From contig OW818675.1 of assembly GCA_942493095.1 (NCBI GenBank), forward strand, positions 960,001 to 992,000: 32,000 nucleotides of DNA, read 5' to 3'. Source of the stretch: Candidatus Electronema halotolerans (GTDB lineage: Bacteria; Desulfobacterota; Desulfobulbia; Desulfobulbales; Desulfobulbaceae). The translations under genes and the position numbers were made by a program. Positions 15,341 through 31,781 of this stretch are shown piece by piece (the stretch's first letter is position 1; each line of letters begins with the position of its first letter). The notes under the pieces are model-generated. The model worked only from the letters and a program-made list of their open reading frames with translations. It was not told where the DNA came from and searched no databases.

Positions 15341-15447
15341 TGTCGAGAATGGTGCAGGAATCAACCCGCGAGGAAACATTGAAGAAAATTCGGGTCGGGA
15401 AATTGGCCTTGATCACGCCGGTGAGCACATCTATTGAAGGACGCTGC
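15341..15447 (-). pseudogene. 107-bp internal fragment of ftsK (motor-domain segment), orphan copy
   Basis: Ungapped alignment to 21011-21117 within ftsK at a constant offset of 5670 gives 98/107 identical by hand count. It would encode [35 protein letters not shown] versus fts[36 protein letters not shown]. There is no start codon and no surrounding ftsK sequence. Confidence 0.85.
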
Positions 15448-15466
15448 CCAAGACGAGCAAACTTTA

Positions 15467-16021
15467 CTACGGTAAGGACGAATTAGAACTGGCGCATTTT
15501 CTGCGCTGTTTATCAAGCAAGATTTTTCTTGCCGCTCTCTTGGGCAGGCGGAGCAGGAAGACAATCGGTCGTTCAATAAGCGAGATGGACGGCGACAGTT
15601 TTCCCAGCAGGAGATTGACTGTCCGCCACGTTCGGCTTTCGTAATGCGTCGTCCTGCCGTTTCGGGTTACTTTGCTGATGATGCCGAGGAAATCAGCCGC
15701 AGAAACGGGCGGGTCGCAGCGGTATCTGCGGTCGCTCTTGGTCAGCAGATGTTGCTTTCCGTCAAGCTGGATGCAACGAAGAAAGCGATGTGCTTTCAAT
15801 CTGCCGTTGACATGATAGACCGCAACATCGCCACAGCGGAGCGTATCCGCCTGTATTGGTTTGATGAAAATCAAGTCGCCCTCGCGGAGCAGCGGTTTCA
15901 TGCAGTGACCGGTGAGCGTGATTTCCACCGGCTCGCCCTTTTGCAGCAGCAGGATGATGATCTTGTAATAATCATGCTTTTTGAAAAACTCCTCCTGAAA
16001 GGTGCTGCCGGAATCTGTCAT
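15467..16021 (-). CDS. S24/S26-fold peptidase-like protein with Cys at the nucleophile position
   Basis: [13 protein letters not shown] aligns to the G-x-S-M-x-P-x-L-x-x-GD nucleophile motif of LexA/signal-peptidase-fold enzymes. GDVAVY...LKAHRF aligns to the GD(i/v)v.f...(K/H)R(v) general-base region. The start overlaps the kinase stop (ATGA). Confidence 0.6.
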
Positions 16022-16854
16022 ACCGTTTCAATATGTTCCGTGAGCAGGCGGGCTGCTGCCGTCGCATCGTTGTGGATAAGCTGAAAAGCATTCGCCTTTT
16101 TCACTACTTCGGCCATCTGCTCAATGCTTGCAACGGATTTTGCCCTGCCGATCTGGGCATTCATCAGGCGCAGCAGGGCTGCTGATTTCTTCATCGGTGC
16201 AAGAGAAGGCGGTTTGTCCGGGTCGTAGCGGACAAAGAAGATGCTGTGCAGCGGCGCAGGTTTGCCGTGTATCGCCTTTGGCACGGCAATCTGATGATCC
16301 GCACCAAAGCTGCGCACCGGCCAGGATGGAGCAAGGCGGACAATACCGGTCTCTTTGCAGGACACGGTTTTGAGAAAGGGATGAACAATCTGTCCGGCAT
16401 CCAGCAGGCCGACTTCATCGGTAAGATAAGCCCAACCGTGGTTTGCGATCAATTCAAGAGTGAGGGTTGATTTACCGTGACCGCTTTCGCCGAGCAGCAG
16501 GATTGCGCTGTTGTTTCTGCTGACCGCACCGGCATGAAGGGTGATCAGCTCTTGTTTGTCAATCTGGTTAATGGCGTGGCCGGAGACGATATTCTCCAGT
16601 GCCTTGCTCAGGAGGGCAGAGGGAACGGCGTGCAGCTCGCGGCCCCAGTCAAAGGCGATTTTCCCTTGTTTCCAGATGGAAAAGCAGTCGGGCTGATCAG
16701 CACTCGGCAGAACGGTTATTTGTGCTGCTGTCTTATCCGGCGGAGCAGGGCTGAGAAACTCCTGCCACATGTAATCGCAGAACTGGTTAAGTTCTGCGAG
16801 CGGGGTTTCAAGGCGGATGAGGGTTTTGGTGATGGAGTAGAAGCTCTCAGGCAT
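16018..16854 (-). CDS. HprK-related P-loop kinase (HPr kinase C-terminal-domain-like)
   Basis: LHAGAVSRNNSAILLLGESGHGKSTLTLELIANHGWAYLTDEVG matches HprK-related kinase A/B-type proteins. The start overlaps the radical-SAM stop by 8 nt. Confidence 0.75.
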   Translation of the reverse strand: MPESFYSITKTLIRLETPLAELNQFCDYMWQEFLSPAPPDKTAAQITVLPSADQPDCFSIWKQGKIAFDWGRELHAVPSALLSKALENIVSGHAINQIDKQELITLHAGAVSRNNSAILLLGESGHGKSTLTLELIANHGWAYLTDEVGLLDAGQIVHPFLKTVSCKETGIVRLAPSWPVRSFGADHQIAVPKAIHGKPAPLHSIFFVRYDPDKPPSLAPMKKSAALLRLMNAQIGRAKSVASIEQMAEVVKKANAFQLIHNDATAAARLLTEHIETV

Positions 16855-18259
16855 GGCTTTCCGCCTGCACTTCCTCCACCAAGCCTAATTTCTGGAAGGC
16901 GGCAAGCTGGCCGTAGATGTCGTCTTTGATGGTGTCAAATTCCACTTCGCAGACGTTGGCAATCTCTTGGGCGATTTGTTGGGCGGTGCGGTGGCCGTTG
17001 ATGAGATCCCAGATGGCCATCCCCATTGAATTTAATGCGTACCTTTTATCGTGATTACATAACAACCCTTCTTCTTTTAAATCTATCGTTGTTATGTTTG
17101 GACATCTCGTCATTACAGTACGTTGAGCAGAAGGAAGATCATTTTTACCGCATCTGTTATCATAAGGTATGTTTTTCATTTGAAATTCATTTTTATTTTT
17201 GATCATATATCTCAGAACGGCAGTAATTATTGTTTTGTTAAACAAACATAAATAATTAGCAGACAAATCGTTATTATATTCGTGAATACAGACACCTCCG
17301 CACAAAAAAATATATTGGCACTCCGAGCAGTGATCCCTGTATATGTTTTGAATATTGATGTTTTCTATTTTTTCTTTATCTATCCCGTTACGGGTGTTGC
17401 CAATCAAATATTTTGAGTGACTGACAAAACGATGACAGGGAAAGAAGTCTCCGTTAAAAGATACTGTTATTTTGTTTCTTCCAATACCGCATCTCGTAGC
17501 TTTCTTTTGAGAAAGAAAAGTATTTATTATACGTTGAACGTTATATATCGTGCTGTTTAAATTCCCCTTTTCTTTATACGAAAGAATAATACTATCAACT
17601 ATATCTAACAGTTGCTGTTGACCAACAGCATTACTATCATTAGTGGTTACAGGTGTTACTATTCCAAATACTACCATTTCATTATTTTGCAAGATTCCTA
17701 TATCAGAGTAATTCCTTAAAATATCGTAAGGTAAATCAGTGTTTGCTGTCAAAGTAACTCTAATTTGATACTTCACGTTGTATTTTTGCAATATTTTTAT
17801 ATTATTAACTATTTTGCTAAAACTCACACCCCCCTTCTTGTATCTTCTTTGAAGATCATGTGTCTGTTTTTTTCCGTCTAACGTAACTTGAATATGAACT
17901 TTGTTATCGTGACAAAACTTAGCTATTTCATCATCTATTAAAGTTCCATTAGTTATTATTCTAAATGATAAGTCATTTTTATGATCTATTTTACTTATTA
18001 ATCTATTGATTGTATATCGAATTTTAGAAAACTCAATTAATGGTTCTCCGCCAAAAAATGATACTTTTACACATCCACGATGTTTCTTCTCATAAATATC
18101 AATGAAGTTGTCAATATCGTTTTTAGATAACGATTTTTTTCTATTCGTATACTTATCACCAGCTTTCAGATAGCAGTAAGTGCATTGAAGATTACAAGAA
18201 CCGGTTATATCTATCTCGACATCTGATACATCTTCCAACATGCACTTAATCTCCGCCAT
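16847..18259 (-). CDS. radical SAM / SPASM-domain peptide maturase with a C-terminal PqqD (RRE) domain
   Basis: CNLQCTYCY is the CX3CX2C motif. SFFGGEPL is the GGE motif. The SPASM region is CGIGRNKITVSFNGDFFPC...CSECQYIFLCGGVC (CX2CX5CX3C). The C-terminal ITTIDLKEEGLLCNHDKRYALNSMGMAIWDLINGHRTAQQIAQEIANVCEVEFDTIKDDIYGQLAAFQKLGLVE is PqqD-like. An alternative ATG at 18241 has GGAG 9 nt upstream. Confidence 0.85.
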   Translation of the reverse strand: MAEIKCMLEDVSDVEIDITGSCNLQCTYCYLKAGDKYTNRKKSLSKNDIDNFIDIYEKKHRGCVKVSFFGGEPLIEFSKIRYTINRLISKIDHKNDLSFRIITNGTLIDDEIAKFCHDNKVHIQVTLDGKKQTHDLQRRYKKGGVSFSKIVNNIKILQKYNVKYQIRVTLTANTDLPYDILRNYSDIGILQNNEMVVFGIVTPVTTNDSNAVGQQQLLDIVDSIILSYKEKGNLNSTIYNVQRIINTFLSQKKATRCGIGRNKITVSFNGDFFPCHRFVSHSKYLIGNTRNGIDKEKIENINIQNIYRDHCSECQYIFLCGGVCIHEYNNDLSANYLCLFNKTIITAVLRYMIKNKNEFQMKNIPYDNRCGKNDLPSAQRTVMTRCPNITTIDLKEEGLLCNHDKRYALNSMGMAIWDLINGHRTAQQIAQEIANVCEVEFDTIKDDIYGQLAAFQKLGLVEEVQAESHA

Positions 18260-18422
18260 TATTACAGCAGCTTTGCCATGATGCCATATCGGAACACTCA
18301 GATACAGATTCACCGTTTAAATCTGTCAATTCGCATATATCTGGTTTAACATAATTCCCCTTTAAAACCTTCAACCTTCCCTCTTTAATCCCGTTTTTTC
18401 CTTTCTCATTCATATTTTCCAT
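18246..18422 (-). CDS. candidate RiPP precursor peptide (58 aa, Cys-rich C-terminus)
   Basis: MENMNEKGKNGIKEGRLKVLKGNYVKPDICELTDLNGESVSECSDMASWQSCCNNGGD. AGGAGGAG SD lies 4 nt upstream of the ATG at 18422. The stop overlaps or abuts the radical-SAM start. The gene shares the low-GC composition of the maturase. In-frame ATGs further upstream lack an SD. Confidence 0.65.
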   Translation of the reverse strand: MENMNEKGKNGIKEGRLKVLKGNYVKPDICELTDLNGESVSECSDMASWQSCCNNGGD

Positions 18423-18560
18423 GATCTCCTCCTGTTCATTCATTTCGCCAGCCATTATCGGCAATTAGATCCAACCCAATCAACCTTCATCACCATGCCA
18501 ACGAAGAAAGGCTCAAATCATCATGCAGCCTCAATCCGTTTCAGTCCGCTCAGATCAACT

Positions 18561-18958
18561 CTAAAAAAATCGGAAGCCCGCCTGCTCGAAATGATGATCA
18601 AAGGTCAGCGCAGTGGTGATCTGCATTTCCCTCATCACCACAAACGACAGACAGTCAACCAAGCCCCACGTTTTATCCTGATATCTGTTAAACAGGTTCA
18701 CTGCCTGCTTGAACAGAACAGGATTCATATAAATCAGCGTCATTTCGTCAGCTTCCTGAAAGGCGCGAATAAGCTGGCTGCATTGACGGCGGCGATGCGT
18801 GACAAAGCATTGCCCGTTTCCAGCAGGACAGCATCGGTCGTCACCAAAGGATAACCAGCGCACTGTTCCGCCAAGCTCAAGGCCCGCTTATGATAATTGT
18901 CGTTCTCGTTGATTAGGGCGATGATATACCCTGTATCAACAAACAAAGGCTCAAGCAT
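18561..18958 (-). pseudogene. vapC: PIN-domain VapC toxin, disrupted by one frameshift
   Basis: The N-terminal half (MLEPLFVDTGYIIAL...TTDAVLLETGNAL, ORF 18740-18958) and C-terminal half (NRYQDKTWGLVDCLSFVVMREMQITTALTFDHHFEQAGF, ORF 18561-18863) of one PIN domain lie in different frames. The shift maps to about 18770-18810. Confidence 0.75.
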
Positions 18959-19193
18959 TCTTCTCGCCGTTCAAGTAGGCATCAATGTTTTCAGAGAAGT
19001 CCGCAGGCCCGCTGATTTTAATCTCCTGCAACCGTGCCAGCAGGGAAGCCTTTGGCTTTGGCAGGGCAGCATCCTCGTCAATAATCACAATCACGCGCAC
19101 CGATTTGTCATCCCATGCCTGACGATACGCATCTGGAATAGTGACGGTCACTTTGCCGTCACGAGCAACCGCGTTCAGTTCAACGGCATTCAT
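18951..19193 (-). CDS. VapB-type antitoxin (small DNA-binding antitoxin upstream of vapC)
   Basis: An 80-aa ORF overlapping the vapC start by 8 nt, the typical TA architecture. The family assignment rests mainly on context. Confidence 0.5.
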   Translation of the reverse strand: MNAVELNAVARDGKVTVTIPDAYRQAWDDKSVRVIVIIDEDAALPKPKASLLARLQEIKISGPADFSENIDAYLNGEKNA

Positions 19194-19264
19194 AATCGTT
19201 CAGTTTCTTTTCTTGAGCGCGGCTAAAATATCTTGTGAAACTTCCAATCGCATTGTTTCATTCA

Positions 19265-20452
19265 TTATCTTCTTCCGATCACATACACATTGACTAATTT
19301 CAGCCAATACCTCGGATACGCCATTGCCAGCTTTCCAGCGGTGCTGACATCATACTTTCCTGCCATCCCCATCCACTCTTTCTCCGGCACAAAGGTGCGG
19401 AAAATATAAGCTGCTTTTGCGGCTGGACTCGGTTGCTGCCTCAAACTGACAAAATAACTCTTCAGTCTTTTCAAAAGAGGCATCCTGACTTTCTTAACAT
19501 ATACTTCTTCGCGCAAAAATGAAGAAAAAATCGCCTCCCTGTTCTTCAATGTCTTCTCAGCAAGAAACTGTTCTGGCACCGGTGCATCCAGCAGGATATG
19601 GGCATAACTCAAGCCTGTCATAACTTCCTTGCGCAGCTCAGGAACGACACATATTTGTTCTATTTTATGCCAATCAAGTGTTTTCTCATGCTTCCGCAGC
19701 AGTTCGTTGATGTCGCACAGTTCTCTGAGAACAACTCCCATATAATAAACATGCTTGAAAAAATGCGTACAAAGATGAATCAGCATCATTTCCTGTGTCA
19801 ATTTATGCTGATTACCGCTGACATTTACAGAACTTGCTAAAGCCTGCCGCGTGATCTCTCGAAATCTGTTGTCCTGAAAAAGTGACCTATGCACTTCAAT
19901 AGCTACTTTTTTGCATAATGGAGGAAGATGCAGACATGTTTCCGGCAGCTCGCCATGCGCTTGCGACTTTTTGACCGCATGAAGCGGTAAAGAGGATGTG
20001 TAACCAAAGTCCCTCAACTGATACCAATTCTCTTCCACATATTCCTGCTCCACCAGCAAATCAATATCGCACATTGAGCGAAGAGCAATATTCGGATACA
20101 GGCTTTGAATCAGTTCTATTCCTTTCAGCGGAATGACTTTGTTCGGCAGAATGCTGGCAATTTCCTTGAACGCTTCAAGCATCTTGGCATTTCTGAGTGC
20201 AGTGTCGTAATATTCAATTTCAGTGTCGTAATATTCAATTTGAAACCTTTTCAACAATTCTTTCGGCAGCAGATCAGTCAAATCATGCTGCCTGAAGGCG
20301 TAATAAATGAACTGACTGACCCCATGCGTGAAAGCCTTTTTCGCCACCGCCGACCAGTCCAAGCCGCTGCCTGCCAGCTCTTTCAGTGCGGCAATGTTGT
20401 CTTCCGCCAGATGCAGCCGGGCCGCATTGAAGATGAATGCGTCTTCCTTCAC
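19265..20452 (-). CDS. nucleotidyltransferase family protein (NTP_transf_5-like)
   Basis: RSMCDIDLLV, the surrounding pattern and the roughly 390-aa size match the uncharacterised nucleotidyltransferase family that co-occurs with PqqD and HprK-like genes. GTG start. GC is visibly lower than the flanks. Confidence 0.65.
   Translation of the reverse strand: MKEDAFIFNAARLHLAEDNIAALKELAGSGLDWSAVAKKAFTHGVSQFIYYAFRQHDLTDLLPKELLKRFQIEYYDTEIEYYDTALRNAKMLEAFKEIASILPNKVIPLKGIELIQSLYPNIALRSMCDIDLLVEQEYVEENWYQLRDFGYTSSLPLHAVKKSQAHGELPETCLHLPPLCKKVAIEVHRSLFQDNRFREITRQALASSVNVSGNQHKLTQEMMLIHLCTHFFKHVYYMGVVLRELCDINELLRKHEKTLDWHKIEQICVVPELRKEVMTGLSYAHILLDAPVPEQFLAEKTLKNREAIFSSFLREEVYVKKVRMPLLKRLKSYFVSLRQQPSPAAKAAYIFRTFVPEKEWMGMAGKYDVSTAGKLAMAYPRYWLKLVNVYVIGRR
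20200..20241. repeat. perfect 2 x 21-bp tandem duplication inside the nucleotidyltransferase gene
   Basis: cagtgtcgtaatattcaattt occurs at 20200-20220 and again at 20221-20241. It is in frame and duplicates EIEYYDT in the protein. Confidence 0.95.
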
Positions 20453-20573
20453 GCCAAGAGAGTTTTTTAAATGAGAATGTTTCTCATTATCAATCTGGTC
20501 AAGCAGTTAAAAATTATATGCCCCAAGAATAGCACTCCAGAATAAGATGTCAAGACATTTTTTTGCTGTTGCG

Positions 20574-20605
20574 AAAAAAATACCGGCCAGCAAGCTGCTG
20601 CGCCG
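20574..20605 (-). terminator. putative intrinsic terminator of ftsK
   Basis: On the minus strand a 9-bp stem with one bulge (CGGC-G-CAGCA gct TGCTG GCCG) starts 1 nt after the ftsK stop. It is followed by GTATTTTTTT. Confidence 0.5.
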
Positions 20606-20606
20606 A

Positions 20607-22826
20607 TTACTCCATCGAAGCCAGCACTTCTCTTGGCCGTGAACCATCGGACGGCCCGACAATGCCGTCGCGCTCCATCATCTCGATCATGCGGGCGGCC
20701 CGGTTGTAGCCGACCCGCAGCCGCCGCTGGAGCATGGAGATGGAAGCCTGCCGGGTCTCCTTGACCACAGCCACTGCCTGATCATAGAACTGATCATGCT
20801 CCTCCTCGCCGCTGTTGCCGCCGTTCTCCTCCTCGGCAAACTGGAGGACAGACTCGTCATAATCCGCACTGCCCTGCTCCTTGAGGAACGCAATGATCCG
20901 CTCGGTTTCAGCCTCGGATATGTAAGCCCCGTGAATGCGCTTGAGCTTGGCCGCGCCCGGCGGGAGAAAGAGCATGTCGCCTGCGCCGAGAAGGTGTTCG
21001 GCCCCGGAGCTGTCGAGAATGGTGCGGGAATCGACCCGCGAGGAGACCTTGAAGGAAATCCGGGTCGGGAAATTGGCCTTGATCACGCCGGTGAGCACAT
21101 CCACTGAAGGCCGCTGCGTGGCTAAGATGATGTGCATGCCAGCGGCCCGCGCCATCTGCGCCAAGCGGGCGATGGAGGTTTCCACATCTTTTGATGCGAC
21201 CATCATCAAATCAGCCAGCTCATCAACAATAATGACGATATAGGGCAGCTTTTCCTCAGCGGTCTGTTTGTTGTAGGTGGTGAAGGATTTGACCTTGGCC
21301 TCCTCCAGCAGTCGGTAGCGCCGTTCCATCTCCCGCACCGCCCAAAGCAGGGCGCGGCTGGCCATCTTCGGCTCGACCACCACCGGATGGAGCAGATGCG
21401 GAATGCCCTCATAGGCTGACAGCTCAATCCGCTTGGGATCGATCATCAGCAGGCGGACCATGTCTGGCGGGGCCTTGTAGAGCATGGAAGCAATGAAGGC
21501 GTTGATGGCCACTGACTTGCCCGCGCCCGTGGCTCCGGCAATCAGCAGATGCGGCATCCGGGCCAGATCAGCCACTGTCGGACGGCCCACCGAGTCAAAA
21601 CCCAAGGCAACCGTCAGATAGGAGCGCGAGTTTTTATACGGATTGGCAAGGAGGATGTCGCGGAGAAAGACGGTCTTGCGCTTGGGATTGGGAATTTCAA
21701 TGCCGACCGCCGCCTTGCCTGGAATCGAGCCGACCACCCGCACTCGATCTACTTTGAGCACCATTGCCAGATCATCGGCCAAGTTGACAATCTTGCTGAT
21801 CTTGATGCCAGCAGCCGGGGCGAATTCATACGTGGTCACCACCGGTCCCGGCGAAATGCCAACCACCTCACCCTGCACTGAGAAATCAAGCAGCTTGGCA
21901 GTCAAGATCGCGCTGGTTTCTTCATAATGCTGCCGGTCAATTTCCACATCCTCCAAGCTGTTCTCCTCCAGCAGGGTGATGGGCGGCAGCTCAAAGTTCT
22001 GCCAGTCAACCGGTTTTTTCTTCTTGGGAGGCTCCTCTGTTTTTTTGCCCTTCTTATCCGGTGATGATGGACTGCTGCCAGCTTCCGCCTTGCCTGCCTC
22101 ACGAAGAAAAGGCAGCTTCTGGATGATCACCGCAGGCAGGCTGGGCAGATTTCTGACAGGAGCAGGTTCCGGTGCTGGCGGTGGCGGCAGAGCTTTGCGC
22201 TGCTCGCGCTCCTCCTTCCACGCAGTCAGTTTTTCCCGCAGCGGCTCTTCCAGCGCAGCCATCTTGCCGCCTGCGTTCCGAGCCTGACCCCAGAGCCAGA
22301 AGGAAAAGGCGATGGGCGAAAAGCGCACTGCCGCCATCAGGGAGAAAATCAGGAGCAGGAGCAGGAGCAGGGCCGAGCCAACCCCGCCGAGCAGATTGCC
22401 GAGCAGGCGGTGCAGCAGGCTGCCGAGAAAGCCTCCCGGTGCAACTAACTCTGGTGGAAAAATAAGTTTATCCAAACTTGCCAAGAGACCGGAGGCGGCC
22501 AGCAGCACTCCGGTCAGTCCGGCAACAATGAAGGGAAGACGGTCAATGGCGGCTTGGGCCGTGAGAACAGTCGCAGCGAGTTGGAAAAAGAGCAGGGGCG
22601 GAAAAAAGGAAATCAGGCCGAAAAAGGAGAACAGATAGCGGGCTGTGTAATAGCCGAAATGGCCGCACCAGTTCGCTGCCGGGAGCTGGACTTGCGGTTG
22701 CGAGCCGAGCAGCGGCAGGCTGTAGCTGATCAGACTGAGCAGCAGAACCATGCCCAGAAACAGGCAGGTGACTGCCGCCGCCTCCTGCTGGAGCCGGGCC
22801 TGCCGGGCCAAGGCTGCGAGGCGCAT
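20607..22826 (-). CDS. ftsK: DNA translocase FtsK
   Basis: N-terminal TM helices, a Pro/Lys-rich linker, the motor domain (PHLLIAGATGAGKS, IVIIVDELADLMM, ATQRPSVDV) and the C-terminal gamma wHTH (SISMLQRRLRVGYNRAARMIEMME). The ATG at 22826 is preferred over the TTG at 22829. Confidence 0.95.
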   Translation of the reverse strand: MRLAALARQARLQQEAAAVTCLFLGMVLLLSLISYSLPLLGSQPQVQLPAANWCGHFGYYTARYLFSFFGLISFFPPLLFFQLAATVLTAQAAIDRLPFIVAGLTGVLLAASGLLASLDKLIFPPELVAPGGFLGSLLHRLLGNLLGGVGSALLLLLLLIFSLMAAVRFSPIAFSFWLWGQARNAGGKMAALEEPLREKLTAWKEEREQRKALPPPPAPEPAPVRNLPSLPAVIIQKLPFLREAGKAEAGSSPSSPDKKGKKTEEPPKKKKPVDWQNFELPPITLLEENSLEDVEIDRQHYEETSAILTAKLLDFSVQGEVVGISPGPVVTTYEFAPAAGIKISKIVNLADDLAMVLKVDRVRVVGSIPGKAAVGIEIPNPKRKTVFLRDILLANPYKNSRSYLTVALGFDSVGRPTVADLARMPHLLIAGATGAGKSVAINAFIASMLYKAPPDMVRLLMIDPKRIELSAYEGIPHLLHPVVVEPKMASRALLWAVREMERRYRLLEEAKVKSFTTYNKQTAEEKLPYIVIIVDELADLMMVASKDVETSIARLAQMARAAGMHIILATQRPSVDVLTGVIKANFPTRISFKVSSRVDSRTILDSSGAEHLLGAGDMLFLPPGAAKLKRIHGAYISEAETERIIAFLKEQGSADYDESVLQFAEEENGGNSGEEEHDQFYDQAVAVVKETRQASISMLQRRLRVGYNRAARMIEMMERDGIVGPSDGSRPREVLASME

Positions 22827-22829
22827 CAA

Positions 22830-26969: not shown

Positions 26970-28545
26970 TTATACTGCGGCATCGGGGATAAAAGGACTT
27001 CCAAGGAAAGCATCTTTGATCGCTTCAAAAATGTTTCTTGAATTTTTACGGACCGTGGAGATATATCCCCGGATACAGGCGAATCGTTCTGCCCCCTCAA
27101 GTGTTCGGAAGCAGCCGGAAACCTTCTGCTTGACCTTGATCATCCGCACATCTCTTTCCGCCGCGTTGTTGTCGAACGGAACCCGGAAATCATACATGAA
27201 TGCGAGGGTCTCCGCCCTGTAATCACGCATCCGTGTCAGCAAATTGAGCGGCGGAGTCTTCTTCACCCGTCCTCGTTTTTTCTCCTTAGGGTACCTCGAA
27301 AAATACCGATTTTGCCGAAGGCGTGATCGAATAATCAGACATTTACAACGCAACAACTGCCAAAAATACCAATTTTTCGAGGTACCCCTTAGGCGGAGTG
27401 AACGGATTGTCCGCAAAACCCCGTCGGACGATTTCATCATACCGCCGCTCAAATTCTTCGATCTTCTCCGGCGTGAAGCCGTCCCGATCCGGCTTCAGCT
27501 TTTCAGCCGCGCCTTTTATTTCAAGCAGCAGCTCGGCCATCTCGCCGGCCCAAACTTGTCCGTACTGTTTTTCTATGAACTTGAGTTCCCGGAGATGATG
27601 CGCATTGCACAGCGCATGACCGCAGTTTTCATAGCTGAAGTACGATTTCCAATGATCATGCGTCGCTGTTCCTGTGAACTTTCCAAGGATTCCCGCTGCG
27701 TCCATCGCCTCTTTTCCCCGTTTTTCATGCACCGAATAAAGGGTGAGGCAGTTCGTCGAAGCGACATGCAGCCAGTGCAGCTTCCCTTTCACGCGGACTC
27801 CGCTTTCATCGGCATGTAACACATCGGTATTCATGAGCAGTTTTTCGACTGCTTCCGTTGAAGGACGCACGCATCCGCAAAGCTCTTCCGATGCCTTCAG
27901 CAGCGAACCCTCGGAGACGGAATGCCCGGTCAGGTCTTCGATAATCTGCGCAGCCCGTTCAAGCGGAATATGATGCTGGTTCGCGAAATATGCCGCCCAA
28001 GTTTTCACCCCCGTGCCGTAACGGATGCCCTGTCCGACGTTTTCCGGGAATTTGCCTCTGTTTTCCGTGCCGCAGCCGGGACAGATTTTTATTTCCGCTC
28101 GATGCGAGGTCACTTCAATCCGAATCGCCGGAATATCATAAACCTGCCGTTCCTCCTCTCCGACAGCGACGACATCCGCAAGCGACATTTTGCAAGCCGC
28201 GCATTCCTCGGATTTATACCTCTCCGTAGAATCCGGCGCCGCAGACCGCTCAAGAGTATGCCCTTGATGACCTGGCTGGCCGCCGTTCGGCTTCCTGCCG
28301 GACTCTCTCAGACTTTCCGTTCGCTTCGCTTTACCGTATCCATCGCTCGAAGGCGGTTTCCCGCTGTTCCGACTGTTTTTCGACAGCCGGGCCTGCAAAT
28401 CCTTCAATATCTCGGACTGCTTGGCTGACTGAGCGGCGAGGTTTTCAACCTGCGCAGTTATACTGCTAAACAGGGCGACGACCGCTTCTTCGCCTTCTGC
28501 GTATGCAGCACGGACTTCTTTTTCACTAGGAACACTGAAATTCAT
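26970..28545 (-). pseudogene. IS66-family transposase split by a 97-bp insertion
   Basis: ORFs 27343-28581 and 26970-27452 carry consecutive IS66 transposase regions (zinc-ribbon-like CAACK...CPGCG, HADESG, CNAHHLRE, then [24 protein letters not shown]). Removing 103 bp (element plus one repeat copy) joins ...PFTPPK to [12 protein letters not shown]... in frame. Confidence 0.85.
27289..27385. mobile_element. MITE-like 97-bp nonautonomous element
   Basis: It has perfect 15-bp terminal inverted repeats, GGTACCTCGAAAAAT and ATTTTTCGAGGTACC. These are flanked by the direct repeat CCTTAG (27283-27288 and 27386-27391). It has no coding capacity. Confidence 0.7.
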
Positions 28546-28560
28546 AACGGCAGCATAATC

Positions 28561-28609
28561 TTTACCTGTTGATTTTGTCAAGAGGCTTGGCGGATGCCTG
28601 AGTAGTTAC
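28561..28609. repeat. 49-bp IS66 end sequence, copy 1 (part of the IS)
   Basis: tttacctgttgattttgtcaagaggcttggcggatgcctgagtagttac is identical to 28878-28926. Confidence 0.9.
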
Positions 28610-28954: not shown

Positions 28955-28983
28955 TTGACAAATGTTCGAGGGAGGAATACAAT
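28955..28983 (+). promoter_or_regulatory. sigma-70-type promoter candidate for the DUF3859 gene
   Basis: TTGACA (28955-28960), a 17-nt spacer, then TACAAT (28978-28983), about 130 nt upstream of the ATG at 29111. Confidence 0.5.
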
Positions 28984-29110
28984 ATTTAAAATCAGATTGT
29001 CTCTGCGGCTGCAGCAGATAATTTTAACAACTGGAACCAAGTTGAGGAGAGATGTTATGAATCAGAATTACAAGGAAAAATCAAAATGCATGGTATTGAA
29101 AGGAGAGAAA

Positions 29111-29611
29111 ATGAAAAGAAACATCTCGTATGTTTTTTCCGCTTGCTGCATATTCTTTTTTACAGCGTTGATTGCGCCTCTTGCTGATGCGAAATCAGAA
29201 ATTATTAGTGCTAAGGTTGTTGATTATGGAATTATTGAGCTTCAGACGACGGCATCTACTGAACAGCCTGATGATGTAATAATCAATCAATTAGCCACTT
29301 CTACAGAGAGAATACCTGCCAAGATCGGGACAAGTTTCGGAATCATTTTTAAAGTAGATGGTCCTCCTGATGGAGAATTTATCGACCTGACTGCAAATTG
29401 GCTATTTCAAAAAGATGGTGTCAAAAATCCTGAAAGTGGAGAATTTTTACATCAGGCTACAGTACCTTTTAAAGCTAATATCGGCAAGCTGTCTTTGCAA
29501 TATGCAACTTTTGACTCTGCGAATGACTTGGTTCCTGGCAATTGGGTAATTGAAATATGGCATCAAGAAAGAAAACTCTGTGAGAAAAAATTCGAAGTGT
29601 ATATGCCCTGA
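29111..29611 (+). CDS. secreted DUF3859-like protein
   Basis: Signal peptide MKRNISYVFSACCIFFFTALIAPLADA. The remainder (IPAKIGTSFGIIF...GNWVIEIWHQERKLCEKKFEVY) resembles DUF3859. AGGAGAGAAA SD. GC is low. The ATG at 29111 is chosen over the 28955 extension. Confidence 0.6.
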   Translation: MKRNISYVFSACCIFFFTALIAPLADAKSEIISAKVVDYGIIELQTTASTEQPDDVIINQLATSTERIPAKIGTSFGIIFKVDGPPDGEFIDLTANWLFQKDGVKNPESGEFLHQATVPFKANIGKLSLQYATFDSANDLVPGNWVIEIWHQERKLCEKKFEVYMP

Positions 29612-30295: not shown

Positions 30296-31781
30296 GTAAG
30301 CGATCACAGGGTACCGCTCAGACCCAGCTTAAATCCGGCATCTGTCCTCTGAAATAGCAGCGCATGGCCTCGGTGAGCACCTCGAAAGTGGATTTTCCCC
30401 GAAGCAGGCATGTCTGCCGGAGGGAAAGGATTCGTTCAACCCAGCGGTTTCCCTTGTCGCTGTCAGTGCCCTGACTCCGTTTGCGCCACAGCACGCCGAA
30501 GCGGAGCATCCGTTCCGCTGGATTATTTGTCGGCTCTACGCCTTCTTCGAGCAAGAAAGTGAACAACGCCTCCATTTCCTTGTCAATATGACGGACAAAC
30601 CTCCCCGCATCACTGTCGCAATCGCGCCAGCGTAGGATAAGTCGGCAGAGCCGGGCATAAAATGCGGACCATTCACCTTTGGTCGGCGGGTCTTTCGCCA
30701 TGCGGCAGAGCCGCCGCAGTTCCGCAGCGGCCCATTTGCCGCAGGCGGCCAGTTCAGGGTCAGCGCGCTCCGCAAGGCCGTCTGCCCGGCGGATAAGATG
30801 CGCGAGGCAAGTCTGCCGCTTGCCGACCCATTTTTGGTACACGTTGTATCCGTCGCTGATGAGAATACCGTTCCAAGCACCGATCAGTTCTTCAAAGGCT
30901 TCCTTAGAGCGTTTCGGATGAATCATGAAGAACGCGGCCTGCCGGTTCGCCATAACCCATAACCAGCGCAGCCTGCCGCCAGTTTTCCACGTTGTTTCAT
31001 CAACATGTCCGATATCCCCGCTTGTGACGGCAGCCCGGACGGCCTCATAGTGCGGCGCGACAGCCGCCGAAGCCCGGTCAATGATCTTCTGCACCGCCCC
31101 GGCGCTGATAGGAACGCCGAGCACGGAACGGATGAATTTCCGCACAGTTCCCCGGCTGCTGCCGTCCATGCCGCTCAGTTCGGCAACCAGCGCGGTGAAC
31201 CGCGCCCCGAAACCGGTTCTGAATTCATCGGGAACACAGCCTCTGACGGTTTTGCCGCAGGCGGCGCATTCCCCTTTATAAAGAAGGAAATGCCTGACCT
31301 GCATCACGATTTCCGGCAGTTCAATATGCTGATGCGTATAATATGACCGTATGTTTTTGAATTTGCCGCAACCGCAGGAGCAGGCGGAAGGATACATTTT
31401 TTGCGTTTCTGTCGGCGGCATCAGCTCCTGACGATATCCACGCCGCTTTTTCCGGGGCTTCCCCGCCTGATCTCTCTGCCGTTTTTCTGTAAACGGAGAG
31501 TCGGAAGAAGGCGGCCTGTTCGAGTTCGAGGAATCTTCGCCGAGTTTCGCCTCAAGCTCTTCGACCCGTTTTCTCAGCCGCGTTACCTCAGCGATCAAAA
31601 AAGACAGCAGCTTCCGCACCGCAGGAGGTGTAGCGGCAAGGTCTTCCTCGCTTATCTCAAAATTTTCACGATGGAACGGGGCGGTCACAGCTTTCTCCTG
31701 CGGAAAAAATTACTGCTCACAATTTATCCAGTTGCGATGCCAAGCGCCAGTGTTTTTTAGAGACACCCTGTGATCAGTTAC
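30296..31781 (-). mobile_element. intact IS66-family insertion sequence (single ORF) with 8-bp target duplication
   Basis: IRs are GTAAGCGATCACAGGGT (30296-) and ACCCTGTGATCAGTTAC (-31781), matching at 15/17. They are flanked by GTTTAAAC at 30288-30295 and 31782-31789. Confidence 0.9.
30318..31688 (-). CDS. IS66-family transposase
   Basis: N-terminal coiled coil (RKRVEELEAKL), Cys clusters (CSCGCGKF, CAACGK), HVDETTW, CLAHLIRR and TNNPAERMLR motifs. GTG start with AGGAGAAAG SD. Confidence 0.9.
   Translation of the reverse strand: MTAPFHRENFEISEEDLAATPPAVRKLLSFLIAEVTRLRKRVEELEAKLGEDSSNSNRPPSSDSPFTEKRQRDQAGKPRKKRRGYRQELMPPTETQKMYPSACSCGCGKFKNIRSYYTHQHIELPEIVMQVRHFLLYKGECAACGKTVRGCVPDEFRTGFGARFTALVAELSGMDGSSRGTVRKFIRSVLGVPISAGAVQKIIDRASAAVAPHYEAVRAAVTSGDIGHVDETTWKTGGRLRWLWVMANRQAAFFMIHPKRSKEAFEELIGAWNGILISDGYNVYQKWVGKRQTCLAHLIRRADGLAERADPELAACGKWAAAELRRLCRMAKDPPTKGEWSAFYARLCRLILRWRDCDSDAGRFVRHIDKEMEALFTFLLEEGVEPTNNPAERMLRFGVLWRKRSQGTDSDKGNRWVERILSLRQTCLLRGKSTFEVLTEAMRCYFRGQMPDLSWV

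Follow-up and report, generated by a model that had tools for sequence, protein, structure and literature searches.

An AT-rich precursor and maturase cassette in Candidatus Electronema halotolerans, probably exchanged by recombination within the coding sequence of a PqqD-family domain

The window analysed here is a 32,000-nucleotide (nt) stretch of the cable bacterium Candidatus Electronema halotolerans (GenBank assembly GCA_942493095.1, contig OW818675.1, positions 960,001 to 992,000 of the forward strand), and coordinates refer to the window unless a contig is named. Downstream of ftsK it holds a chromosomal locus for a ribosomally synthesized, post-translationally modified peptide (RiPP). 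The gene of its radical S-adenosylmethionine (rSAM)/SPASM maturase, which ends in a PqqD-family RiPP recognition element (RRE), shows an abrupt break in G+C content (GC). This break is very probably the right edge of an AT-rich 'specificity cassette' (17021-18396) that has been exchanged recurrently. The cassette would comprise the precursor gene from about codon 10 onward together with the rSAM/SPASM maturase and the beta-sheet half of the C-terminal RRE. The flanks would be inherited vertically, with a host-like composition: on the left a 5' region of about 75 nt with 9 precursor codons, and on the right the RRE helices, a kinase, and a peptidase. Across strains and species, very different cassettes fill this one slot and move between lineages, with crossovers in the conserved flanks that point to homologous recombination using the flanks as arms. 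The first joining of novel cassettes to the constant region would take place in a conserved patch coding for MAIWDLxDG. Polymorphic peptide-signal and bacteriocin loci exchanged by recombination are known, and this locus of an uncharacterised RiPP family would resemble them. The main features are as follows.

17021-18259, minus strand: variable AT-rich part of the maturase gene, encoding amino acids (aa) 1-413 of a 470-aa protein with the rSAM core, the SPASM Cys region, and the RRE beta-strands.
16847-17020, minus strand: constant host-like 3' end of the maturase gene, encoding RRE helices alpha1-alpha3 and a terminal strand (MAIWDLINGHRTAQQIAQEIANVCEVEFDTIKDDIYGQLAAFQKLGLVEEVQAESHA), then the stop codon; GC 0.56.
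18246-18422, minus strand: precursor peptide gene, 58 aa (MENMNEKGKNGIKEGRLKVLKGNYVKPDICELTDLNGESVSECSDMASWQSCCNNGGD), with AGGAGG 5 nt upstream of the ATG.
18423-18500, minus strand: conserved 5' leader or promoter region, the left homology arm, from the multi-locus alignment.
16921-18496, no strand: inferred exchanged tract between the window and L006 lineages, consisting of the cassette and about 100 nt of each conserved flank.
16018-16854, minus strand: HprK/ScmC-like P-loop protein, a putative peptide kinase; constant module, GC 0.547.
15467-16021, minus strand: S24/S26-like peptidase, a putative leader peptidase; constant module.

The maturase probably starts at ATG 18259 (MAEIKC..., 470 aa) and not at GTG 18313, and this ATG overlaps the last codons of the precursor gene. 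An earlier note, made from the letters of this DNA alone, had described an abrupt GC break within this single open reading frame (ORF), and both sliding GC and the GC of third codon positions (GC3) bear it out. In 180-nt windows, GC falls from 0.556 at 16840-17019 to 0.317 at 17020-17199, reaches a minimum of 0.24-0.26 at 17860-18159, and is back at 0.44-0.48 by 18400-18640, with a gradual recovery on the left side across 18200-18500. Along the ORF (16847 to 18259 or 18313, minus strand), a GC3 of about 0.25 gives way to one of about 0.75 at codon M414 (17020/17021); in 20-codon windows it is 0.05-0.50 through ..KRYALNSM and 0.65-0.80 from GMAIWDLING to the stop. The switch had been placed at 17025-17040, which is correct to within about 10 nt, DNA homology to other loci beginning at 17020. 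The low-GC stretch was said to last to about 18470, and this describes its extent roughly, but the limit is approximate and homology to sister loci resumes at 18397.

The background for 180-nt windows across the 32 kb is 0.557 ± 0.065. The 20 windows within 17021-18396 have a mean GC of 0.311 (z = -3.8), this tract is the deepest and longest low-GC tract of the 32 kb, and the step near 17043 ranks among the three largest. Host neighbours (an ntrX-like regulator, kdtA, rsmI, and ftsK) have a GC3 of 0.68-0.72. The downstream kinase and peptidase, at 0.62-0.64, are host-like in composition as previously described. The sharp GC drop is real and no assembly artefact, since L002, a separate Logan assembly, matches 15402-18466 at 99.97% and the same step occurs in 11 other independent contigs.

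The sister contig L006 (Logan SRR21856587) has the same gene order as the window. Its flanks match the window at 96.7% identity (18397-21090) and 97.0% identity (15402-17020). The 1.4-1.5 kb that separate these flanks are unalignable, with about 44% identity if the alignment is forced, and the two rSAM proteins share 38% of their amino acids. Protein searches find relatives that are 32-39% identical over the first ~420 residues, yet near-identical in the final 57 residues, MAIWDLLDGQRTAQQIAQEIANVCEVEFETIKDDIYGQLAAFQELGLVEEVQAESHA. A total of 12 distinct cable-bacterial loci with about 10 cassette types was recovered from contigs of NCBI, ENA, JGI, and Logan. The constant 3' end has 81-91% nt identity across all 12, whichever cassette they carry. 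The GC step is found in 12 of the 12, from 0.27-0.34 in the 600 nt upstream to 0.47-0.56 in the constant 171 nt. Four cassette types come from one metagenome (JACCEE01), and L010 adjoins the 3' end of ftsK as the window does. A profile scan with an alignment of the constant 61 aa matches only one GTDB representative, L007 (Ca. Electronema sp. KV). Plasmids, phages, and IMG/VR give only generic rSAM matches and no closer relatives, so a plasmid or phage vector is unsupported.

Cassettes and hosts group differently. Over the first 255 nt of the kinase gene, the window and L006 (95% nt identity), L001 and L016 (92%), and L008, L010, and L011 (94-97%) form groups. By amino acid identity of the cassette, the window groups with L001 (68%), L003 with L006 (86%), and L010 with L016 (83%), and other pairs have at most 47%. 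Each host lineage with more than one representative thus carries unrelated cassettes, and each cassette type found twice occurs in different host lineages. At the DNA level, the cassettes of L003 and L006 are 81% identical and their flanks 71%. The cassette therefore moved between these lineages after their split. The separate comparison of the two parts of the ORF, proposed in the earlier note, gives different closest relatives. The N-terminal part is nearest to Ca. Electrothrix sp. AR3 (L001), and the C-terminal part with the kinase is nearest to L006, which has an unrelated cassette.

The maturase matches Pfam Radical_SAM (PF04055, 70.5 bits, cutoff 29.5) with the motif CNLQCTYC, as well as Fer4_12, and has a weak SPASM match (18.4 bits, cutoff 21.5). 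A 40-sequence alignment shows that C22, C26, and C29 are nearly invariant and that seven Cys of the SPASM region are invariant (C257, C275, C311, C314, C320, C324, and C338). The best curated model is NCBIfam rSAM_PapB, where the score of 191.8 bits is below the cut-off of 340; rSAM_six_Cys gives 147.4 bits, below its cut-off of 425. Fold matches are anSME, CteB, ChlB, TigE, and SuiB. The closest solved sequence relative is CteB (5WGG, E 1.1e-31), with an alignment that begins at CteB residue 101 and query residue 16, so the CteB-type N-terminal RRE is missing from the maturase. Its only PqqD domain is C-terminal (PF05402, 37.9 bits, cutoff 23.4, aa 424-479 of the 488-aa ORF).

The AlphaFold2 model of the maturase (pLDDT 82, pTM 0.83, RRE domain pLDDT about 80-88) has a C-terminal winged helix with strands at 381-385, 390-394, 397-401, and 406-409 and RRE helices at 411-419, 426-437, and 441-457. 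By Pfam score and predicted fold, the C-terminal domain is a PqqD-family RRE with putative leader binding. The junction residue M414 is modelled at the start of alpha1, on the beta3/alpha1 boundary, with all strands in the cassette and all three helices in the constant region. A recombination boundary inside the PqqD coding sequence and a chimeric RRE, as first suggested from the letters, are thus supported by the L006 comparison, the GC step, the discordant groupings, and the position of the junction in the model.

Outside the cable bacteria, the family cluster is found in low-GC genomes. It consists of NTP_transf_5, a precursor of 68-78 aa, rSAM-PqqD, an HprK/ScmC-like protein, an S24-like protein of about 175-200 aa, and often an ABC transporter. 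Locus L012, for example, is from a 7.4 Mb genome, has a locus GC of 0.375, and has SusC/TonB-type neighbours. In the low-GC family loci L012, L013/L014, L015, and L018 the GC step is absent, and the final ~57 codons do not differ from the remainder in AT-richness. Since these loci have the same gene order without the step, the fusion of rSAM and PqqD is ancestral and no product of a graft. Exchange most probably replaced one fused allele by another, to judge from these sequences. A resident standalone PqqD had been proposed as the acceptor of the incoming module, and this part of the proposal is probably not right: the fusion also exists in low-GC genomes without the step, and the replaced allele was most probably fused. 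Conservation of fusion and GC step together across distant genomes had been named as the sign of a domain-specific composition effect; the low-GC family loci have the fusion without the step.

A standalone PqqD of about 90 aa had also been expected in related loci, and it is found in L007 only, with 101 aa, but is itself chimeric at the same codon. L007 (864-2625 of its contig) encodes an AT-rich maturase of 477 aa that has a complete, likewise AT-rich PqqD domain and a stop of its own, then the standalone 101-aa PqqD, then the kinase. This second PqqD has an AT-rich N-terminal half and a cable-constant C-terminal half, with the GC step again at MAIWDL. L007 may thus represent an import with its right end upstream of the resident RRE. 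The N-terminal half of its standalone PqqD, compared with the sampled cassettes as a possible recent relic, reaches an identity of only about 40% with any of them. If the two MAIWDL patches of L007 recombined, the window architecture would be regenerated.

An HMMER scan of 1.84 billion representatives gives about 35 full-length members of the family when these are clustered at 50%. In a neighbour-joining tree of their variable part, the cable cassettes are monophyletic in 0 of 100 bootstraps. P0009, from a cable bacterium, groups with P0137, P0140, and P0132 (100/100), and P0011 and P0012, also from cable bacteria, group with P0013, which is L015 (100/100). These partners (P0137, P0140, P0132, and P0013) carry different C-termini. 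Cable cassettes are 24-35% identical to one another and equally far from the non-cable ones. They are interleaved with other family members, and have therefore been joined to the cable constant region, or the reverse, several times. The constant genes are close to the host in composition, and the cassettes remain at about 30% GC, as do the non-cable members, so that repeated import from donors of low GC is the simplest explanation. A possible alternative is an old balanced polymorphism that has stayed AT-rich for lack of recombination or GC-biased conversion. Four members (P0123, P0124, P0133, and P0138, the last being L018) have divergent rSAM parts and a near-identical C-terminal end (..DIYQQLATFQELGFIEEVKETA; ..EIEKDIYQQLATFQELGFIEEVKETA). 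L018 is uniformly at about 30% GC on a contig of just 1.9 kb. These four may represent the same layout of cassette and constant region in a low-GC lineage, where the step would not show.

Improbable among the other explanations, though less so than the rest, is a single ancient graft of a low-GC module into a standalone PqqD-kinase-peptidase cassette, with the diversity arising later in situ. It would explain why all cable loci share the junction zone and the constant 57 aa, and why L007 has a standalone PqqD before the kinase. That PqqD is chimeric, however, and the fusion is ancestral in the family. Close hosts with 97% identical flanks carry unalignable cassettes, cassettes of the same type are more alike than their flanks, and the tree does not unite the cable cassettes but places two subsets, at full bootstrap support, with members having other C-termini. 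The exchange of an AT-rich module inferred in the earlier note thus stands, but not as a one-off event, given about 10 cassette types with a shared junction zone in 12 loci.

The boundaries of the cassette recur at nearly the same positions. On the right, the start of homology to the window is 17020 for L004, L005, L006, L007, L011, and L017, 17021-17034 for L003, L008, and L009, and 16998 for L010 and L016. On the left, most of the loci that extend to this side lose homology at 18395-18417, and L006 and L003 lose it at 18397. This second boundary is inside the precursor gene after about codon 9 (18396/18397), with codons 1-9 (18397-18422) belonging to the constant left flank and the remainder to the cassette. 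At the nucleotide level the right-hand switch is at the ATG of MAIWDL. The junction is a zone of about 25 nt and no single site, because the AT-rich sequence runs about 20 nt further, to GACGG, in L010, L016, and L017. In the MAIWDLxDG-coding patch, AT-rich and cable versions share up to about a dozen contiguous identical nt, for example ATTTGGGATTTA, which is common to L006 and L012/L015. This patch is plausible as a crossover hotspot, and selection for an intact fold would narrow the surviving junctions further.

Mismatches between the window and L006 are concentrated beside the cassette. The first 100 nt of the flanks contain 15 (right) and 18 (left), and farther out there are mostly 0-5 per 100 nt, except for two bins with indels. 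Identity is 83% in the first 90 nt past the junction and 92-100% thereafter. This clustering indicates homologous-recombination tracts ending in the conserved flanks and not a site-specific mechanism. Integron- or shufflon-like exchange of cassettes at fixed sites in the precursor and PqqD genes is accordingly very improbable, even though both boundaries recur at nearly the same nt in many independent cassette types. No integrase or recombinase ORF is present at 13-23 kb of the window or in the sister contigs (12 contigs in all), and the two boundaries have no repeat in common. The switch point varies over about 25 nt, and flank divergence decays over about 100 nt, as recombination tracts would.

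An explanation free of recombination, by AT-rich drift and fast rSAM evolution with PqqD helices under strong purifying selection, is hardly credible. The helices, chiefly alpha3 (DIYxQLxxFxELGxxEEV), are indeed the most conserved part of the protein even between phyla, and the cassette is AT-rich in every host. In contrast, an unalignable core between 97%-identical flanks, discordant groupings of kinases and cassettes, flank mismatches piled up beside the cassette, and a jump of 0.5 in the GC3 of synonymous sites inside a single codon window are all left unexplained. An assembly chimera of contigs from two organisms has next to no chance, because although the junction is in the family's most conserved motif, where assemblers can mis-join, the window comes from a closed genome (PMC10030654), L002 reproduces 15402-18466, and the same junction occurs in the 11 other contigs of the four databases.

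The precursors form one family, and a member is located before every homologous maturase. Their leader has the pattern ME(K/N)LNEKGK...GIKEGRLKxLKxNYxKP, followed by a (D/E)CSDMAS motif. Leader and CSDMAS are conserved, and the hypervariable Cys-rich tail co-varies with the cassette type. The precursors of L003 and L006, for instance, both end in SSEYNWGMKDCSDMASCMG(F/Y)MCCAGYA, and the tail of the window precursor has C-ELT-D (CX3D). From known RiPP enzymology, the RRE would bind the conserved leader and the rSAM/SPASM enzyme would cross-link the variable Cys-rich tail, most likely by CteB/PapB-like thioether chemistry. The constant kinase, nucleotidyltransferase, and peptidase would act on the leader and CSDMAS. 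Frequency-dependent or diversifying selection for strain-specific peptides, with a role as pheromone, bacteriocin, or kin-recognition factor, may maintain the polymorphism. That the peptide is a strain-specific signal or weapon is much less probable than the cassette model.

The constant enzymes are distant from curated families. The kinase has an intact Walker A motif (GESGHGKST) and aligns over its full length (8-272) with TIGR04352 HprK_rel_A at 74.6 bits (cut-off 200); Hpr_kinase_C gives 17.8 bits. These scores suggest only a distant relative of HprK-related kinase A. Scores for the SynChlorMet equivalogs ScmC (16.5 bits, cut-off 125) and ScmE (76.6, cut-off 400) are also below the cut-offs, and kinases of sister loci have a faint ScmC Pfam match. 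The peptidase gives 22.6 bits with Peptidase_S24 (PF00717, cutoff 23.3) and 36.3 bits with sigpep_I_arch. In its motif GHCMKP a Cys replaces the nucleophilic Ser of the family, in the window as well as in L007, L012, and L013, and L015 has GYCMSP. A candidate general-base Lys is found in GRLKAHRF, and the peptidase adjoins the kinase in all family loci. The Cys is kept across phyla, and the enzyme may represent a form of the LexA/signal-peptidase fold with a Cys-Lys pair.

Several points weigh against the reading as an exchanged specificity cassette. A near-identical junction in about 10 cassette types is too regular for random endpoints of homologous recombination alone, so that a microhomology hotspot, or selection for an RRE able to fold, must be invoked. 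Conservation of the C-terminal 57 aa is partly due to family-wide purifying selection, as the helices of L015 and P0134 are similar without being of the cable type. The direction of transfer may be import or export, most non-cable members carrying no taxonomic assignment. Peptide chemistry, product, and role are deduced from homology below the cut-offs (PapB model, 191.8 against 340). The window's locus has no exporter or receptor gene.

Staphylococcal agrBDC is a polymorphic pheromone locus of a kind comparable to comQXP of Bacillus subtilis. In the latter, comQ, comX, and the 5' end of comP make up a poorly conserved block in conserved flanks (PMC6334282). One boundary is within coding sequence, and a single habitat holds many allele classes side by side (PMC6334282). 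Like comQXP and agr, the window locus has a variable block formed by a modifying enzyme, a precursor, and part of the adjacent coding region, with conserved flanks and a divergent core at an orthologous position and discordance between core and flanks. It differs in having an rSAM/SPASM maturase, in that the split element is an RRE and not a receptor, and in the lack of an evident sensor, immunity, or exporter gene. The GC contrast of 0.31 against 0.56 and the relatives of the cassette in other low-GC genomes are further differences. By analogy, the window peptide could have a pheromone role.

The low-GC polymorphic O-antigen and capsule loci are located between conserved genes and are exchanged by recombination, with many types per species. 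They share with the window locus an AT-rich variable block, conserved flanks, and replacement by homologous recombination. In contrast, the cassette has 1.4 kb and not 10-20 kb, and both of its breakpoints are intragenic and must keep frame and fold. Unlike integrons and shufflons, the window has no adjacent recombinase or repeated end sites.

Among RiPP systems, the sactipeptide/ranthipeptide enzymes CteB and PapB resemble the maturase in the CxxxCxxC motif, the 7 conserved Cys of its putative SPASM region, and a Cys-rich precursor tail with CX3D, but the window RRE is C-terminal instead of N-terminal and the NCBIfam scores are below cut-off. SCIFF and Pap clusters differ from the window in its partner genes, which are HprK-like, NTP_transf_5, and a Cys-variant S24 peptidase. 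HprK-related kinase A, SynChlorMet (ScmC), and kinase-bearing lasso clusters likewise have an HPr-kinase-like protein, a PqqD RRE, and a nucleotidyltransferase around a small precursor, and tailoring of lasso peptides by a kinase and a nucleotidyltransferase has reportedly been described. The window lacks the lasso cyclase and B2 protease genes and has an rSAM/SPASM maturase, and its TIGR04352 (74.6 against 200) and ScmC (16.5 against 125) scores set it apart from the other two. The locus should be described as working like the PapB, SCIFF, HprK-rel-A, and ScmC systems and not as a member of them, because curated cut-offs are failed and the peptidase has Cys for the S24 Ser. Literature searches on the locus (rSAM with HPr kinase, PqqD, and nucleotidyltransferase; cable bacteria with RiPP; the Ca. 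E. halotolerans genome paper) found nothing. PADLOC gives no matches for the kinase, nucleotidyltransferase, peptidase, and precursor, and only generic core similarity of the rSAM protein to pVip; the cluster has no membership in a PADLOC defence system.

The locus is a clean natural case of a compositional break that marks a recombination boundary within a single protein domain. It points to a natural cut site of an RRE-maturase fusion, between beta-sheet and helices, which is apparently still working and gives a testable design rule for RiPP module swapping. It also defines an uncharacterised RiPP cluster family in several phyla, with rSAM/SPASM and C-terminal RRE, HprK-like kinase, NTP_transf_5, and Cys-variant S24 peptidase. 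About 10 allele classes in few contigs, four of them in one metagenome, suggest strong diversifying selection on a secreted or surface peptide. Cable bacteria form centimetre-long multicellular filaments, are not yet culturable, and their cell-cell biology is poorly understood; this locus is a candidate both for a strain marker and for a system of kin recognition or competition. A broader view is tentative and rather unlikely as a whole. It takes the locus as a plug-and-play slot for RiPP diversification in cable bacteria, with a beta3/alpha1-split RRE, in-frame module swaps that include distant low-GC phyla, and peptides serving as self/non-self or pherotype signals for the multicellular filaments.

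On the minus strand, the genes are ordered ftsK, NTP_transf_5, a VapB-like antitoxin with a PIN toxin, precursor, rSAM/SPASM-PqqD, HprK/ScmC-like protein, S24/S26-like peptidase, and rsmI. The remaining features of this block are the following.

20607-22829, minus strand: ftsK, upstream of the RiPP block.
19265-20452, minus strand: NTP_transf_5 nucleotidyltransferase-family protein (PF14907, 145.3 bits).
18951-19193, minus strand: VapB-like antitoxin, between the nucleotidyltransferase and precursor genes.
18561-18958, minus strand: frameshifted PIN/VapC toxin, in two ORFs that each match half of Pfam PIN.
15341-15447, no strand: 107-nt copy of an internal ftsK segment, 92% identical to 21011-21117; repeat family D1.

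The region at 18423-18500 is kept in all cable loci regardless of the upstream genes. It contains a promoter-like TTGATT-N18-GATAAT (18483-18454, minus strand). Compared with L006, the window has a 4-nt TGGC insertion at about 18454, and the upstream part is 5 nt shorter in other loci; since the TTGATT/GATAAT spacing is not conserved, it is doubtful that this is a promoter. An Rfam scan of 15-21 kb gives sub-threshold noise only, with no riboswitch or small RNA that accounts for the conserved 5' region.

The position of NTP_transf_5 varies by locus, either upstream or downstream of the cluster (L003, L004, L006, L012, L013, and L015). In the window this gene has a perfect 21-nt tandem duplication (CAGTGTCGTAATATTCAATTT twice, 20200-20241), which doubles the seven residues EIEYYDT and is absent from L006. 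The PIN protein of L006 is intact with 132 aa, and the window carries a 1-nt deletion in a C-run at about 18792. The split PIN/VapC gene is either a true pseudogene or the result of a homopolymer sequencing error. At 19212-19284, about 70 nt remain from the 5' end of an antitoxin gene of the UPF0175 family, with 84-89% identity to the intact genes of L007, L016, and L017. In these three loci the intact gene is upstream of the precursor gene, and in L007 and L017 it is immediately adjacent. The VapBC pair has displaced the UPF0175 antitoxin in the window and L006, and toxin-antitoxin modules therefore turn over at this spot too.

The two ftsK copies of the 107-nt direct repeat bracket the whole 5.67 kb block of RiPP and toxin-antitoxin genes, and the distal copy, an ftsK coding fragment, sits between the peptidase gene and rsmI. 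Candidate origins of the repeat are a Campbell-type insertion, a duplication relic, and a rearrangement. The block finds no support as a mobile island or circular element, as it has no integrase and sister loci with different gene content are ftsK-adjacent too. The Logan contigs L002 and L006 both terminate inside the repeat; such breaks are no evidence of mobility, since de Bruijn assembly would yield them anyway.

Two sister loci have unusual versions of the cluster. L004 (205-4474 of GCA_003704795.1) is expanded upstream of the rSAM-PqqD gene, with the 3' end of an ABC transporter, a second rSAM of 477 aa, a protein of 655 aa, and an ORF of 63 aa; a second small ORF resembling a leader reads VEKLSEKSK..GIQEA..CDSGAVACI. 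In L008 (324-1787 of JACCEE011826932.1), the maturase is split into three overlapping ORFs, either by frameshifts of a decaying allele or by assembly errors. Elsewhere in the window, transposases of the IS66 family are encoded at 27343-28581 and at 30318-31688, in both cases on the minus strand. The two genes flank another patch of low GC at 28.9-29.6 kb, the second in the window, which has a GC of 0.37-0.39 and encodes a DUF3859 protein (28955-29611).

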